A DNA stretch of 64,000 bases from Bacteroidales bacterium (GTDB taxonomy: Bacteria; Bacteroidota; Bacteroidia; Bacteroidales; UBA1715), in the NCBI GenBank assembly GCA_046482735.1, contig JAWOEL010000080.1, positions 2,124 to 66,123 on the forward strand. The letters are read 5' to 3'. The translations under genes and the position numbers were made by a program. The notes under the pieces were generated by a model. The model ran no database searches and was not told the origin of the DNA. It saw only the letters and a program-made list of their open reading frames with translations. Positions 38,733-50,911 of this stretch are shown in pieces (the first letter of the stretch is position 1; each line of letters begins with the position of its first letter).

Positions 38733-39728
38733 ATGTTGATAAGTCTTGTTGGTAAATATGATACATATGAGTACAATTCTCAAAACCAAATGAATAGCAC
38801 TCCCAAAAAAAGAAAATTTAGTGCAATTTATCGTGGTAAACGGAAAAGTGATGGTGCATATGTCATTATAAAGCATATAAAACAGTACTCAGCTATCAGA
38901 CATAATGATCATAAAGTGCTTATTGAACAATTTTTGTTGGGTATATCTGCTTTGCATTCATCGGTTGTTCAGACATATGAAATTGTTCAATTGCAAGATG
39001 AGTATTTTATAGTCCGCGAATATTTGCAAGGTGTAGATGCAAAAACACTTATTTGTGATCCTGATTACTCACATCTGCAAAATTCTTTTTTTTCGTGTCA
39101 GGTAGGTGTTAAAATGTGTGAGGTATTGCATGAATTGCATATGCATTCTATTATTCATTGTAACATTAAACCATCAAATATTTTTATAGAGTGTGATGAT
39201 GAGGGTAAAATTGATGTTCATGATTTCTCTCTTAAAATAGTTGATTTTGAAATGGCTCATGTGCATGATGCTCAGTTGTTTTATTATAAAAAACTTCCTT
39301 TTTCTCTTGTGTATTCACCCCCCGAACAAGTATTGCATTATGCCGATGTTATTGATAATACTTCAGATTTGTATTGTTTGGGACTTGTGATGTACGAAAT
39401 AATTACTCGTCGGCCACCTTTTTATAGCGAAAATCACGAAATGCTCGTTAATTTTCAGATTAATAAAGAATTACAAAAAAACTCACGTATTTCTCAGGAT
39501 ATGTTGTCGTTTGTACAAAAAGCTACATCAAAATTCAAATATTCTTTACCACCCAATAGATATTCGTATGAACAAAATGAGAAATTTTTGGAACAGGGGA
39601 AGCAAAGCAGATTTCAATCAGCTCAAGATATGAAAGAGGCAATTGAAGAAATGATGGTACGTTTTCAGGAGAAAAAAAACAAACGAAAAAACACTTCTTG
39701 GTTTTCTCGTTTGTTTAAGAGAACATAA
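38733..39728 (+). CDS. Hanks-type Ser/Thr protein kinase homologue with substituted catalytic residues (predicted pseudokinase)
   Basis: Kinase subdomains are recognisable: VIIK (II), IIHCNIKPSNIF (VIb), VDFEMAH (VII), YSPPEQ (VIII) and SDLYCLGLVMYEIITRRPPF (IX). A TATATTTG -7 box at 38681-38688 favours the ATG at 38733 over the TTG at 38691. Confidence 0.7.
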   Translation: MLISLVGKYDTYEYNSQNQMNSTPKKRKFSAIYRGKRKSDGAYVIIKHIKQYSAIRHNDHKVLIEQFLLGISALHSSVVQTYEIVQLQDEYFIVREYLQGVDAKTLICDPDYSHLQNSFFSCQVGVKMCEVLHELHMHSIIHCNIKPSNIFIECDDEGKIDVHDFSLKIVDFEMAHVHDAQLFYYKKLPFSLVYSPPEQVLHYADVIDNTSDLYCLGLVMYEIITRRPPFYSENHEMLVNFQINKELQKNSRISQDMLSFVQKATSKFKYSLPPNRYSYEQNEKFLEQGKQSRFQSAQDMKEAIEEMMVRFQEKKNKRKNTSWFSRLFKRT

Positions 39729-46326: not shown

Positions 46327-46421
46327 TACTATTGTTTTATAATGCTTGCATTATTATTTTCTAATAATTATTAAATTTTAAAAATAAATTTGTGGTAGTA
46401 AATCCTCAGTTGTTGTTTCAA

Positions 46422-47645
46422 ATGAATGGACTTGTAGTTTTTATATTGTTTATAGCACTCGTTATTGTATATACCTATAAAGCGTATCAAAATTCTCGTA
46501 CAGTATCTACCCACAAAATAAGATTAATTTATGGAATTATAACATTTTTGCTGGTTATAGGATTTCTACTTATGTGGCAGCGGCAAGTAGACAATTATGC
46601 CAGCATTACTATGATTAAGAATATATGCATAGGTTTGTCAGTAGCATTACTTGTTTCGATGCTTATAACTGTATCAGCATTTTTACTCGAAGATATAGTG
46701 CGAATTGTACTATGGATCAAACGAAGTATTCAGCATAAAAAACGTGTAGTACTTCCCGCCCGAACCAACACAATACGAGTAGCCACCCTTGCCATTACCG
46801 TATTAATAGTAAGTGCAGTATTGTATGGTGTCGTATGGGGCTTTTCGCATTACAAAGTACATTATGTGGATTTTGCACATCCCGATATTCCCACAGAATT
46901 TGATGGATTTACTATTGCACAGATTTCTGATACCCATTTAGGAACCTTTGGAAGTATAAAGCAAGTACAAAAAGGGCTGGATGTGCTACAACAACAAAAT
47001 CCCGATATGGTTGTATTTACCGGAGATATGGTAAACAACAAATCAGAAGAAGCCGAGCGATACATATCAATGTTTGCACATATAAAGGCACCCTATGGTA
47101 AATTTGCTGTGTTGGGAAATCATGATTATGCCCACTATGCCGGCAATTTGACAGAACAAGAGCAGCACCACGATGTCGAAAAATTACGAAAGATAATAGG
47201 ACAGATGGGTTTTGAAATATTAGAAAATGAACACCGCACTATTATACAATCTGCCGACACCATACAATTGGTAGGAGTAGAAAATTGGGGCTTAAAGCCA
47301 TTTCCACAATATGGCGATTTAGATAAATCCATGCAAGAAACAGAAAAAAAAATGTTTACAGTATTGTTATCTCATGATCCATCACATTGGCGACACGAAA
47401 TAGTCGAATATGTCCCACCTATAGAATTGACTCTGAGTGGTCATACGCATGGCATGCAATTTGGTTTTGAAATTGGAGATACCAAATGGAGTCCCATACA
47501 ATACCGCTATTCCGATTGGGCAGGATTATTTGAATACAATAACCGCTATTTATACGTGAATCGCGGTTTCGGTGGAATTGGCTTTCCCGCACGCATAGGC
47601 ATACGTCCTGAAATTACCGTTATTAGATTGCAATCCGAAGAGTAA
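46422..47645 (+). CDS. membrane-anchored calcineurin-like metallophosphoesterase (YkuE-like)
   Basis: N-terminal TM helices, then the metallophosphoesterase motifs ISDTHLG, GDMVN, GNHDY and SGHTHG. The track start is a GTG at 46392, which overlaps a TAAATTTG -7 box (46385-46392), so I prefer the ATG at 46422. Confidence 0.8.
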   Translation: MNGLVVFILFIALVIVYTYKAYQNSRTVSTHKIRLIYGIITFLLVIGFLLMWQRQVDNYASITMIKNICIGLSVALLVSMLITVSAFLLEDIVRIVLWIKRSIQHKKRVVLPARTNTIRVATLAITVLIVSAVLYGVVWGFSHYKVHYVDFAHPDIPTEFDGFTIAQISDTHLGTFGSIKQVQKGLDVLQQQNPDMVVFTGDMVNNKSEEAERYISMFAHIKAPYGKFAVLGNHDYAHYAGNLTEQEQHHDVEKLRKIIGQMGFEILENEHRTIIQSADTIQLVGVENWGLKPFPQYGDLDKSMQETEKKMFTVLLSHDPSHWRHEIVEYVPPIELTLSGHTHGMQFGFEIGDTKWSPIQYRYSDWAGLFEYNNRYLYVNRGFGGIGFPARIGIRPEITVIRLQSEE

Positions 47646-47656
47646 ATATATCATCA

Positions 47657-47704
47657 ACCCCCGTCAGTGGTTGCAAACCCTGACGGTGGTGTTTACAAAA
47701 CACC
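47657..47704. repeat. ~45-nt hairpin element, solitary copy (related to the hairpin inside each tandem unit at 48950-48990 and 49167-49207)
   Basis: ACCCCCGTCAGtggttgcaaaccCTGACGGTGGT has arms CCGTCAG at 47661-47667 and CTGACGG at 47680-47686. It is followed by a second small hairpin, GGTGTTTacaAAACACC, and a T-run. It sits between the convergent 3' ends of two genes. Confidence 0.75.
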
Positions 47705-47714
47705 GTATGTTTTT

Positions 47715-48533
47715 TTATTTTTTTCTGAAACGCACACATTCAAAATGTGTATTATTTGTTTGGTCGAAACGGTTTAGGTCGCATAGCATATTTTCTTCGA
47801 AGTCTTCTTCATCGTAATGTTTACAGATTGTACATAAACCAGGTATTGGAATTAAATCAGTATTGATTGGCTTGCCATTGTCATCAAAAAGTCCTCCGTT
47901 CGAAAATATGTGTTCGGTTTCATTTCGAGAAGCAATTTTATCTATTTTGAATTCATCCTCAAAAAAATCATCCCGGTTATGTAACCATTCTTCAATTTCA
48001 CTTTTTGAGAGAAGCATATGTTCAATAGATTTATCTAATAAATCATGGAAGTCGGTATATTTCTTATCTTCGGCTTCTTTTCTGAAGTCTTCACAATTTG
48101 TGCAATACCCCGGAAAAGGACAATGAGCATCATCATAATCGCAAAATTCAATATGGACATAACCAACAGATACAGCAACATGGCTTTCCGCCCATAGTTT
48201 GTAGATAAAGGGATATCGAAGATGAGTCGGGTACATTTCCGGAAAATCTAAACAGAAATGATAATACTGTAGTAAATTTTCTAATTCTGTTGCCAACAGA
48301 GTTTGTTGCTCTTGATTTAATTTTTTCGGAGGAGGAAGTTGAACGTGTTCAATGCCGGTTATTTTTTCTATAGACTCTTCTTCACCATGAACATATTTTT
48401 CAATATTTAAGATGTTCAATTCAACTTCGTTATCCGGTTTTTGGGGTAAATCTTTCCAAACCTCATGAGTCGGTTTTAAATTCCACGTAGCGTTCCGAAT
48501 ATCATCAATTAAATGTTCAATGTAGTGTTGCAT
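47715..48533 (-). CDS. hypothetical acidic Cys-rich protein
   Basis: The ORF is 291 aa from 48590, or 272 aa from the MQHYIEHL Met at 48533. A minus-strand -7 box TATCTTTG (plus coordinates 48578-48585) favours the latter. There are two Cys clusters, CDYDDAHCPFPGYCTNC and CTICKHY...C...C. I recognise no family. Confidence 0.55.
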   Translation of the reverse strand: MQHYIEHLIDDIRNATWNLKPTHEVWKDLPQKPDNEVELNILNIEKYVHGEEESIEKITGIEHVQLPPPKKLNQEQQTLLATELENLLQYYHFCLDFPEMYPTHLRYPFIYKLWAESHVAVSVGYVHIEFCDYDDAHCPFPGYCTNCEDFRKEAEDKKYTDFHDLLDKSIEHMLLSKSEIEEWLHNRDDFFEDEFKIDKIASRNETEHIFSNGGLFDDNGKPINTDLIPIPGLCTICKHYDEEDFEENMLCDLNRFDQTNNTHFECVRFRKK

Positions 48534-48741
48534 AATCGAATGTTTTATTGTATGGTGTTCATTTTGTTGTATATAAGCAAAGATATACAATTTGAAAAAA
48601 TGGCAATGAAAATTTTTATTTTTGTGTTTTTACTGTTTTATGCTGATTAGTAAGAGTGTATTCAAACGGTTGTTGTTATGTATGGTGATAAGATATTTTT
48701 TTTGATTTACAGATAGATAAAAACCCAAGCAACACTTTATC

Positions 48742-48903
48742 GGGACAATTCCATTTTGGTACGATTAAAAGGTTTTAAAAGAGGGGGGATTGAAATCAAC
48801 AATCGGAAATTTCAATTCCATTCTGGTACGATTAAAAGTACTTAATTTAATGTAAATATTGAACAGTTTGTAGATTTCAATTCCATTCTGGTACGATTAA
48901 AAG
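48742..48903 (-). CRISPR. mini-CRISPR array: 3 repeats of 30 nt (two identical, one degenerate) and 2 spacers (37 and 35 nt); no cas genes in the window
   Basis: ATTTCAATTCCATTCTGGTACGATTAAAAG occurs at 48809-48838 and 48874-48903. A degenerate copy, GGGACAATTCCATTTTGGTACGATTAAAAG, lies at 48742-48771. The two spacers are unrelated in sequence. Read on the minus strand the repeat ends in ATTGAAAT, resembling the ATTGAAA(C/G) 3' end of Cas6-processed type I-B/III repeats, and the degenerate copy becomes the last repeat. The minus orientation is inferred from these two points. Confidence 0.6.
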
Positions 48904-49340
48904 TGTGGTAAGGGCAGTGCATTTTATCGTTAATTTTGGTGCACCCTCGTCAAACCCCGTCAGTGGTGCAAACCCTGACGGTGGTTACGTAAAAAAAAGA
49001 AAATGTACGTAATCTATTATAAAAAAACAGACAGTCGACATTAGAACAGACAGCGTTTCGTCGAAGAAAAACATATAGTATTACTATCACCCTCAACAGA
49101 GGCTTCGACCACTGTTGAGGTGTGGCACGGGCAGTGCATTTTATTAGTAATTTTGGTGCACCCTCGTCAAACCCCATCAGTGGTTGTAAACCCTGACGGT
49201 GGTTACGAAAAAAAAAGAAAATGTACGTAATCTATTATAAAAAAACGGATAGTCGACATTAGAACAGACAGCGTTTTATCGAAAAAGAGAAACATATTAC
49301 TATCACCATCAACAGGGTCTTCGACCACTGTTGATGTGTG
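48904..49340. repeat. tandem direct repeat: two units of 217 and 216 nt plus the first 5 nt of a third, each with three conserved hairpins
   Basis: Unit 1 spans 48904-49120 and unit 2 spans 49121-49336, both starting TGTGG, followed by TGTGG again at 49337. By eye the units are roughly nine-tenths identical, with small indels. The hairpins are CCGTCAG/CTGACGG, TTACGTA/TACGTAA, and CCTCAACAG/CTGTTGAGG (CATCAACAG/CTGTTGATG in unit 2). Confidence 0.85.
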
Positions 49341-49348
49341 GGGGGGAG

Positions 49349-49384
49349 AAAAAAAAGACCCGACAGGAGTGAACCTGCCGAGCC
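49349..49384 (-). terminator. rho-independent terminator of ftsZ / the dcw operon
   Basis: The minus strand reads GGCTCGGCAGG-ttcact-CCTGTCGGGTC-TTTTTTTT. This is an 11-bp stem (with G-U pairs) and a U8 tract, about 40 nt after the ftsZ stop. Confidence 0.75.
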
Positions 49385-49420
49385 TTAATTTACGCATATC
49401 CGCACTATAATTCGTTTATG

Positions 49421-50911
49421 TTAATCAGCGTTGTAGTCCAGGTATTTATTATTGTTTGATAAATATATACCGTCTTCATTTTCATCTATTGAAAATCGTG
49501 ATGGTTCATTTTTTTTTTCGTTGTGTGTATTGTGTTCAGAATTTTCTTCAAAAGGATGTGTTGTGTGTTTTTTGTGTTCTTGTTCTTGTTGTTTGCGAAT
49601 ATATGCCGGTTGATTTTCAAATTCTGTTATATCATCCATTTTTCGTACTTTTTCGTATTCAAATGATTGAATAGGATTTTTATCATCGTCTTGTGTATGA
49701 TTGTTTGTTCCATTAAAAGGACTGTCTTCGTTTATAAGGCGTATTTTTTTCTTAGGTTTATTGTTTGTGCTGGCATTTTCAAATGAGCCCCAGTTTATTT
49801 GTGTTTGTACCGCATCACCATCGTGTTCGTCCGATGATAGTGTTCCTACCATTTTTTTGTCGGAATTTTCCGGTGGTGTTTCGTCTTCGCGTAATTCATT
49901 TACTTTTATTGGGGTTGGTTGTTTGAAATCGGGTAGGTGTTTCATTTCAAAACCTGTGGCAATAAGGGTAACGCATATTTCATCGTGTAATGATTCGTTT
50001 TTTACGTATCCCCATATTATGTTTACATCACGTTCTGCTTTTTCAATTATGTGATTTGTTACTATTGTAATTTCATCCATTGTAATTTCATTTTCGCCCG
50101 AGGTGAAGTTCAGGAGAATATCTTTTGCACCGCGTATGTCTGCTTTGTTGAGCAGGGGCGAGTCGAGTGTTTCCTGAATAGCTTCTATTGCTCTGTTTTC
50201 TCCCGAAGATGTGCCGGATGACATGATAGAAACGCCACTGTCTTTCATGACGGTTTTTACGTCTTCAAAATCTACATTTATTATCCCGTTTACTGTAATA
50301 ATTTCTGCAATCCCTTTTGCGGCGATAGTTAATACATCATCAGCTTTTGCAAATGCATCGGTAATTTTGAGATTTCCGTATTTTTCGCGTAGTGTTTCGT
50401 TGTTAATAATAAGCATCGAATCTACGTGTTCTCTCAGAGATTCTACTCCTTTGAGAGCGTAATTGTATCGTGTTTTTCCTTCAAAAGCAAACGGAACTGT
50501 AACTATACCAACGGTTAAAATGCCTAAACTTTTTGAGATTTCTGCAATTACCGGGGCTGCACCTGTTCCGGTGCCACCTCCCATTCCGGCAGTAATGAAT
50601 GTCATTTGGGTATCGTCGGATAATAATTTTTCTATTTCGGCAGTGCTTTCTTTTGCGGCATTTTGTCCAACTTCCGGATTACTTCCGGCTCCTCGTCCGG
50701 CTGTGAGGCCGTTACCAATTTGTACTTTTGTGGGGATTGAACTTTTTTGTAAATCTTGCATGTCGGTATTACAAACCACAAAATCTACATCTTTTATCCC
50801 GAGTTCGTACATATGGTTTACTGCATTGCTACCGCCGCCTCCTACACCAATTACTTTGATTGATGTGGTTCGTTGTTGCGGAATGTCGAAGTTTATAATT
50901 TCATCAGCCAT
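49421..50911 (-). CDS. ftsZ: cell division protein FtsZ (with extended C-terminal tail)
   Basis: Tubulin signature GGGTGTGAAP and GVGGGGSNAV. A conserved C-terminal peptide-like QPAYIRK is followed by 56 further residues. Confidence 0.97.
   Translation of the reverse strand: MADEIINFDIPQQRTTSIKVIGVGGGGSNAVNHMYELGIKDVDFVVCNTDMQDLQKSSIPTKVQIGNGLTAGRGAGSNPEVGQNAAKESTAEIEKLLSDDTQMTFITAGMGGGTGTGAAPVIAEISKSLGILTVGIVTVPFAFEGKTRYNYALKGVESLREHVDSMLIINNETLREKYGNLKITDAFAKADDVLTIAAKGIAEIITVNGIINVDFEDVKTVMKDSGVSIMSSGTSSGENRAIEAIQETLDSPLLNKADIRGAKDILLNFTSGENEITMDEITIVTNHIIEKAERDVNIIWGYVKNESLHDEICVTLIATGFEMKHLPDFKQPTPIKVNELREDETPPENSDKKMVGTLSSDEHDGDAVQTQINWGSFENASTNNKPKKKIRLINEDSPFNGTNNHTQDDDKNPIQSFEYEKVRKMDDITEFENQPAYIRKQQEQEHKKHTTHPFEENSEHNTHNEKKNEPSRFSIDENEDGIYLSNNNKYLDYNAD

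Follow-up and report, generated by a model that had tools for sequence, protein, structure and literature searches.

Within a stretch of 64,000 nt of Bacteroidales DNA, hereafter called the window, three 30-nt repeats and two spacers lie at the end of the cell-division (dcw) gene cluster, without any cas gene in the same 64 kb. The locus raises the questions of whether these repeats are a CRISPR array at all, how an array came to stand there alone, and whether it has a present function. The analysis described below indicates that the three repeats are a genuine, though tiny, CRISPR array, and that it is most likely a vestigial orphan array of an already known kind.

The array, its repeat family and its spacers

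The sequence was re-read and a shuffle test was performed. Both the repeat coordinates and the spacer lengths of 37 and 35 nt given in the original prediction were found to be exact, and its placement of a mini-array at the end of the cell-division cluster was confirmed by the ftsZ/dcw context. The array lies between ORF272 (47715-48533, minus) and ftsZ (49421-50911, minus) and has the following parts.

48742-48771, minus strand: repeat R1, GGGACAATTCCATTTTGGTACGATTAAAAG, with five mismatches at positions 1-4 and 15; the degenerate terminal repeat at the trailer end
48772-48808, minus strand: spacer S1, 37 nt, partly inverted array sequence
48809-48838, minus strand: repeat R2, ATTTCAATTCCATTCTGGTACGATTAAAAG on the plus strand, intact and identical to R3
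48839-48873, minus strand: spacer S2, 35 nt, the sole ordinary-looking spacer, with no protospacer match
48874-48903, minus strand: repeat R3, ATTTCAATTCCATTCTGGTACGATTAAAAG on the plus strand, intact and leader-proximal in the crRNA orientation

A CRISPR array is defined by at least three near-identical repeats of 23-50 nt with unique spacers of similar length, and this is what the locus presents, at the minimum size. At three or fewer mismatches, the 30-mer occurred in the window as the two intact copies only, and it did not occur at all in 100 dinucleotide-preserving shuffles. A local-alignment scan revealed no more degenerate copies in either flank. Four of the five mismatches of R1 fall within the last 4 nt in the crRNA orientation, where this repeat carries …GGAATTGTCCC. 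R2 and R3 matched the Rfam family CRISPR-DR2 (RF01315) with 27.5 bits (E = 0.018), which is under the gathering score of 37, and no Rfam family was matched at its gathering threshold by the array or by the tandem units beside it. The predicted fold of the array transcript was of unremarkable stability (z = -1.16).

To place the repeat in a family, its occurrence elsewhere was examined. A degenerate-pattern search with the repeat returned arrays in five IMG/VR contigs, and a near-exact pattern matched four Bacteroidales/Bacteroidota MAGs in a species-representative genome set. The exact 30-mer was found in the array of JBDRPR010000573.1 (L010), and a variant identical at 29 of 30 positions (ATTA for ATTC) formed arrays of 58 to >130 repeats in three other Bacteroidales MAGs. 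Among these, JASDTD010000015.1 (L008/L009) has at least 58 repeats and CAZJZG010000027.1 (L006/L012) more than 130, with spacers of 34-39 nt in both. The arrays at L006 and L008 adjoin Cas7/Cst2, Cas5b, Cas3, Cas4 and Cas1b genes of type I-B, as called by NCBIfam matches above cut-off, so that the family is present in cas-adjacent arrays. From this company the repeat is judged to be a genuine CRISPR repeat from a type I-B family. The original prediction had left the choice between types I-B and III; the cas-adjacent arrays bear out the first, and nothing was found that pointed to the second. It had also named a finding that would speak against it, namely the 30-mer as a dispersed non-CRISPR repeat. 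That candidate was rejected, since every occurrence of the 30-mer beyond the window belongs to a regularly spaced array. An origin as a neo-CRISPR by off-target spacer integration was likewise rejected, by inference from the repeats, which are canonical and are not duplicated local sequence.

Two further members of the family were observed. At 6621-6848 of L011 (JAAYJT010000053.1), a four-repeat array of the 29/30 variant, 190 nt from the contig end, borders GC-rich, coding-like sequence where an AT-rich leader would be expected; this may be one more short array without a leader, or else a chimeric join. On the putative viral contig IMGVR_UViG_3300020576_001466 (L003), a three-repeat mini-array lies mid-contig at 3492-3649, and its two spacers are identical to each other.

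The cas genes at L006 and L008 run with the repeat read as CTTTTAATCG…GGAATTGAAAT (the CTTTT...GAAAT direction). In L009 and L010 a degenerate terminal repeat is found at the cas-distal end, the same end as R1 of the window. Based on the direction of the cas genes and the position of the degenerate repeat, the crRNA strand is assigned to the minus strand of the window, with R3 as the leader-proximal repeat and R1 as the trailer repeat. The original prediction had chosen this strand (CTTTTAATCG...ATTGAAAT on the minus strand), with the degenerate repeat in the terminal place, and the related loci agree with it on both points. The 3' end of the repeat, ATTGAAAT, corresponding to the 8-nt handle region, is intact in R2 and R3. 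A Cas6b-processed crRNA would be a minus-strand species of about 65-72 nt starting AUUGAAAU.

The two spacers are of different character. The sequence GGATTGAAAT at 48787-48796 in S1 lies within a longer inverted copy, in which 48786-48802 matches the S2/R3 junction (48868-48884) at 15 of 17 positions, and this match was reached by none of 2000 shuffles of S1. The caveat in the original prediction, that GGATTGAAAT is close to an inverted repeat start, was therefore borne out. The 3' end of S1 on the crRNA strand (plus-strand 48772-48781) also resembles the repeat start CTTTTAA. S1 is probably rearranged repeat or array material and not a captured protospacer; being partly scrambled repeat material, it leaves the array with effectively one ordinary spacer, S2.

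Neither spacer matched cultured phages or plasmids (best E = 0.07), and 0 matches were obtained in IMG/VR even with every sixth position left free. Within the 64-kb window no match or complementarity exceeded 12 nt, and no self-target was found. No significant match was seen in the I-B cas operons of L006, L008 and the relative described below, or in the other arrays retrieved. The spacer searches proposed with the original prediction thus returned no target among phages, plasmids, IMG/VR sequences or the window, and the matches to mobile elements expected of an active immune memory were not seen in the first three of these.

Surroundings of the array in the window

The neighbouring features, from the phosphoesterase gene on the trailer side to ftsZ on the leader side, are as follows.

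46392-47645, plus strand: membrane metallophosphoesterase gene, the trailer-side synteny anchor
47651-47690, plus strand: solitary H2 palindrome (CCCCGTCAGTGGTTGCAAACCCTGACGG), just past the phosphoesterase stop codon
47715-48533, minus strand: ORF272, an uncharacterised Cys-rich protein of 272 aa, directly downstream of the array trailer
48903-49119 and 49120-49336, minus strand: two tandem 217-nt palindrome-rich units, mutually about 90% identical
49349-49410, minus strand: conserved motif 3' of ftsZ with an intrinsic terminator, 98% identical to that of the relative
49355-49386, minus strand: terminator stem-loop, with a 13-bp stem and T8
49421-50911, minus strand: ftsZ, the last gene of the dcw cluster and the leader-side synteny anchor

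The claim that there are no cas genes in 64 kb was upheld by tblastn, by Pfam and, for the families listed, by PADLOC. In tblastn, none of 14 Cas-operon proteins (six from L006 and eight from the relative) matched the window at E < 0.1. PADLOC, run on 46 window proteins, gave no cas family among the 25 listed of 41 matched families, those listed being kinase-type and similar models. Pfam, run on 40 window proteins, gave housekeeping identities or no match; the identities were Na+-NQR, PNPase, PheT, LpxB, SurE, GldH, AhpC, DUF2851, response regulator, metallophosphoesterase and the dcw genes. The adjacent cas6-cas8b-cas7-cas5-cas3 and cas4-cas1-cas2 genes of a complete I-B locus were therefore not present in the 64 kb.

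Strong matches to the PADLOC model PD-T4-6 were obtained among the window proteins (best E = 2.7e-32). They probably belong to the protein with a Ser/Thr kinase domain encoded at 38733-39728 (plus strand; Pfam Pkinase, E = 9e-30), and probably reflect the kinase fold and not a role in defence.

Leader and promoter were sought next to R3. The leaders of L006 and L008 are AT-rich, begin CCGnnAGA and are unrelated to the 217-nt units, and no similarity to them was found beside R3. The sequence directly adjoining R3 is a palindrome-rich, REP-like unit, and not an AT-rich leader with a promoter. On the crRNA strand the array is preceded by the strong ftsZ terminator and then by the two hairpin-rich units, and the Bacteroidetes-type -7 box TAnnTTTG was absent on the minus strand upstream of R3.

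On the plus strand, a promoter match TTTG-N22-TATTTTTG at 48591-48624, a consensus match only, points into the array antisense. It diverges from the TATCTTTG box (48585-48578, minus) that precedes ORF272, and it is overlapped by a hydrophobic ORF of 16 codons (48600-48650, MAMKIFIFVFLLFYAD).

ORF272 itself had no match in Pfam, PADLOC, PHROGs or the PDB, and its AlphaFold model (pLDDT 48) was too poor for a fold search. It belongs to a Bacteroidota family with an invariant core of C131, C138, C144 and C147, to which full-length members add a further CxxC. In L013 and L015 the homologue is one of three genes in a conserved cassette, the other two encoding unknown proteins of 464-497 aa and 350 aa; in the window ORF272 stands alone, without these partners.

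The closest relative and the palindromic tandem units

The window's proteins were found in one NCBI Bacteroidales MAG, and no strain-level relatives were present in the collections searched. The closest homologues of FtsZ (80% identical) and of the phosphoesterase (64%) both came from the same JGI metagenome set. As the gene order is also shared on both sides, we take the two loci, L024 on the phosphoesterase side and L033 on the ftsZ side, to come from one relative. L033, on IMG contig Ga0534205_000386, covers ftsZ into cas1 (first 245 aa) and ends 1376 nt before the contig end.

On the phosphoesterase side, the order in L024 is that of the window: AhpC, DUF2851, amidotransferase, response regulator and phosphoesterase. 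Directly past the phosphoesterase stop codon come two tandem copies of the window's palindrome-rich unit, then the start of an IS1595-like transposase, then the contig end; ORF272 is missing between the phosphoesterase gene and the units. On the ftsZ side, the terminator region of L033 is identical at 61 of 62 positions to 49349-49410 of the window. It is followed by about five tandem units, 68-74% identical to 48952-49343 of the window, and after about 250 nt more by the start of cas6. The operon continues with a cas8b-sized gene (577 aa), cas7, cas5, cas3, cas4, a 221-aa IS200/RAYT-like gene and cas1, every gene being on the ftsZ strand. Cas6, I-B Cas7/Csh2, Cas3, Cas4 and Cas1b were matched by NCBIfam above cut-off, whereas the Cas5b match, at 65 bits, stayed under the required 97.

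The window is collinear with the relative except that repeat R3 comes after the units. In the junction alignment the homology to the units stops at …CCACAC, and R3 (CTTTTAAT…) starts on that last C; the unit sequence accordingly overlaps the last base of R3 by 1 nt (48903). Over its first 245 aa, the Cas1 of the relative shares 70-72% identity with its counterparts in L006 and L008; these two are only 68% identical to each other, yet are found with one and the same repeat. Judged by these identities, it is plausible that the relative uses the repeat family of the window.

The dcw cluster runs through rsmH, ftsL, ftsI … murC, an ftsQ-like gene and ftsA, with ftsZ last. Relatives at 71% FtsZ identity have other genes after ftsZ, MauE/DoxX in one case, which makes the site a variable hotspot; in this family, insertions seem to gather where the dcw cluster ends. 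In another case (L030-L032, 6474-9753), a small islet after ftsZ carries KilA-N, ParE-toxin and M78-peptidase genes. A more distant FtsZ relative, L037, has a contig that reaches 172 nt past ftsZ, too short to show which genes follow.

Directly after the ftsZ stop codon, the motif AGTGCGGATAT(AT)GCGTWAATTAAG was observed in the window (49387-49410, minus) and in L033 (11462-11485). It is also present in L029, L030 and L037 and is kept at 66-80% FtsZ identity, while in the terminator beyond it the stem varies by compensatory substitutions. Motif and terminator together may form a 3'-UTR element or a small RNA.

Each 217-nt unit of the window contains several imperfect palindromes. The H2 palindrome, CCCCRTCAGTGG-N3-4-AAACCCTGACGGTGG, is present at three window sites and was also found in seven unrelated metagenome contigs, mostly as just the 35-nt hairpin. 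Tandem mosaics of such units, built from at least three hairpin modules (H2, H3 and H4), occur in the window (48903-49336), in L033 (11500-12560) and in L024 (7269-7620), with a period of about 217 nt in the window and of 200-245 nt in the relative. In the relative the H4 module includes a T-run; the window's version of H4 is degenerate. The units fold alike on both strands (z = -3.5 and -3.1), as expected for DNA palindromes. Dispersed intergenic imperfect palindromes, often in tandem mosaics, are what characterises REP/BIME elements, and the 217-nt units are of this form. From their arrangement they are best described as a REP/BIME-like cluster older than the present position of the array, and not as a leader.

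That the units might be the CRISPR leader was considered and rejected: they do not resemble the L006 and L008 leaders, and in the relative they occur both after ftsZ and after the phosphoesterase gene, independent of any repeat. The original prediction was right that they occupy the leader position; they are, however, not an unusual leader but a REP-like cluster, the true leader having been lost.

The 221-aa gene between cas4 and cas1 of the relative (L033 19951-20616) matched the NCBIfam model REP_Tyr_transpos with 42.7 bits, against a cut-off of 80, and may have a connection with the REP-like units on either side of the relative's locus. No RAYT gene was detected by tblastn in the 64-kb window.

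Origin of the array and comparison with known systems

The mini-array is probably the trailer-end vestige of a lost type I-B locus between ftsZ and the phosphoesterase gene. Ancestrally, the order on the minus strand would have been ftsZ, terminator, REP-like units, cas6-cas8b-cas7-cas5-cas3-cas4-cas1-cas2, leader, array and trailer. The whole cas operon, the leader and all spacers but the two oldest would have gone in a deletion that began at the last REP-like unit, ended at a repeat boundary and spanned some 9-10 kb or more, with R3-S2-R2-S1-R1 (the last degenerate) as the remainder. Because R3 follows the units without a gap, the locus now lacks a cas operon, a leader and most of its array, and the trailer end alone is left; deletion is the simplest reading of the window against the relative. 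Consistent with this, what survives is the trailer side of an array, closed by a degenerate terminal repeat like those of L009 and L010. Among the options offered in the original prediction, the decaying remnant is thus favoured, the closest relative having a complete I-B operon at the same position.

Several points temper this reading. The site is a hotspot, so that independent arrival of the two CRISPR loci is possible; we infer their common ancestry from position and orientation only. The breakpoint also coincides with a repeat boundary to within 1 nt, a coincidence of roughly 3% for a random deletion. Lacking a leader, the remnant would be unable to acquire spacers, and its transcription would be at most weak, by read-through, because no recognisable promoter lies upstream on the crRNA strand. 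It could guide interference only with a compatible I-B system elsewhere in the genome. Most likely, the array has no present function.

The complete identity (100%) of R2 and R3 with each other and with a repeat of L010 would point either to a recent deletion or to continued selection, that is, use in trans. In the latter case both spacers would be transcribed, a Cas6b would process the transcript, and the products would enter a type I-B (or III) effector from another part of the genome, as a small fixed memory kept by selection, which is compatible with an origin by deletion. Orphan arrays that work in trans have been documented (PMC8616872), the repeat is identical at 29 of 30 positions to those beside I-B cas operons, and the ATTGAAAT handle region is intact in both R2 and R3. 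Such a functional orphan array is nevertheless unlikely here. The array lacks a leader, and its crRNA strand shows no recognisable promoter and has the strong ftsZ terminator and two hairpin-rich units upstream. S1 consists of scrambled repeat sequence, for S2 nothing matching was found in phages, plasmids, IMG/VR, the window or the loci retrieved, and no cas gene lies within 64 kb.

The exact position of the break bears on a further reading, in which the CRISPR-Cas locus is an excisable cassette between direct REP-like clusters, the window shows the scar of its site-specific loss, and the array is perhaps read by a second I-B system. A break exactly at a repeat boundary would suggest a cut by Cas1-Cas2 or by a tyrosine transposase and not a random deletion; the cut would lie at a leader/repeat or spacer/repeat junction. 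A RAYT-like gene is found inside the relative's cas operon. We consider this reading improbable.

It is also improbable that a virus or other element brought in the array and ORF272 as a joint cargo. The same repeat family does occur in short arrays on IMG/VR contigs such as L003, and the distribution of ORF272 is patchy, the gene being absent between the relative's phosphoesterase gene and its units. However, no integrase, transposase, phage or plasmid gene was found nearby that would place the array in a mobile element, the insert measures just about 1.2 kb, ORF272 matched nothing in PHROGs and its homologues elsewhere do not lie beside arrays. The I-B locus of the relative at the same site is the simpler explanation. 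According to PMC8616872, most spacers of viral mini-arrays have targets, whereas none was found here.

A regulatory part, by CreA/CreR-like repression of a host gene, or that of a 'vaccinating' anti-cas mini-CRISPR that blocks re-acquisition of a I-B system, is very improbable. The small size and the degenerate repeat would fit, and the self-complementary S1 can pair with the 3' handle of the repeat. CreTA/CreR modules, though, lie in or next to a cas operon and have a spacer partly complementary to a nearby promoter or toxin gene. The present array is neither in nor beside a cas operon, its spacers have no match longer than 12 nt in the window and none that is significant in the cas operons of the relative, L006 and L008, and the fold of its RNA is not unusually stable (z = -1.16).

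Lastly, it is hardly credible that a metagenomic contig has skipped or collapsed a larger CRISPR-Cas locus that is really present. In favour of this, the source is a MAG contig, relatives' contigs break repeatedly in this region, and the relative's REP-like units after ftsZ and after the phosphoesterase gene lie on two separate contigs, but the two sides of the unit/R3 junction share 1 nt only, over which a k-mer graph could not jump, and with unique spacers three repeats would not collapse at the usual k.

Read as the remnant of a deleted I-B locus, the array is a clean, mappable case of how an orphan array originates, with the cas operon and leader lost and the oldest spacers kept. It matters little alone, being an ordinary kind of genome decay, and it also illustrates the end of the dcw cluster as a variable hotspot in this Bacteroidales lineage. 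For annotation, the adjacent tandem units should be recorded as REP-like elements and not as a novel leader, and only if cas genes turn up elsewhere in the genome should the array count as evidence of active CRISPR immunity.

Several known systems can be compared with the locus. Like known REP/BIME elements, the units of the window are dispersed intergenic imperfect palindromes that are arranged in tandem mosaics and whose predicted folding is equally good in either strand. The adjacent cas operon of the relative includes a RAYT-like gene, yet the score of that gene is under the NCBIfam cut-off (42.7 versus 80 bits), and only a handful of copies were seen.

In Escherichia coli, orphan CRISPR4 (I-F) arrays carry anti-cas spacers (Almendros et al. 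2016, cited in PMC8616872). The array of the window is likewise an orphan where a related genome carries a cas operon, but its spacers do not match the I-B cas genes compared. Viral and proviral mini-arrays (Faure 2019 and Medvedeva 2019, reviewed in PMC8616872) have one or two spacers and host-like repeats, through which the Cas machinery of the host is turned on competing elements. The window shares with them the one or two spacers, the host-type repeats and the combination of complete with truncated or degenerate repeats, but its array lies outside any recognisable mobile element and has no identifiable target.

Compared with the Bacteroidales I-B arrays (L006/L012 and L008/L009), the window is alike in the 30-nt repeat with 29/30 identity, the ATTGAAAT 3' end, the spacer length (37 and 35 nt against 34-39 nt) and the terminal degeneracy at the same end. 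Those arrays have 58 to >130 repeats, an AT-rich CCGnnAGA leader and adjacent cas3-cas4-cas1-cas2 genes, whereas the window has three repeats, no leader and no cas genes.

The closest likeness is to remnant orphan arrays. Orphan arrays and CRISPR-Cas loci of degenerate configuration have been described repeatedly, and the usual interpretation is decay, according to the review PMC8616872 (citing Shmakov 2020); the same review notes that some orphan arrays work in trans. The window agrees with such remnants in its cas-associated repeat family, the absence of nearby cas genes, the few spacers and the degenerate terminal repeat. What it adds is that the deletion can be mapped to within 1 nt against the relative and that the array abuts a REP-like cluster and not a leader. 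The related genome retains the full locus, and in essentials the array does not differ from the remnants already described.
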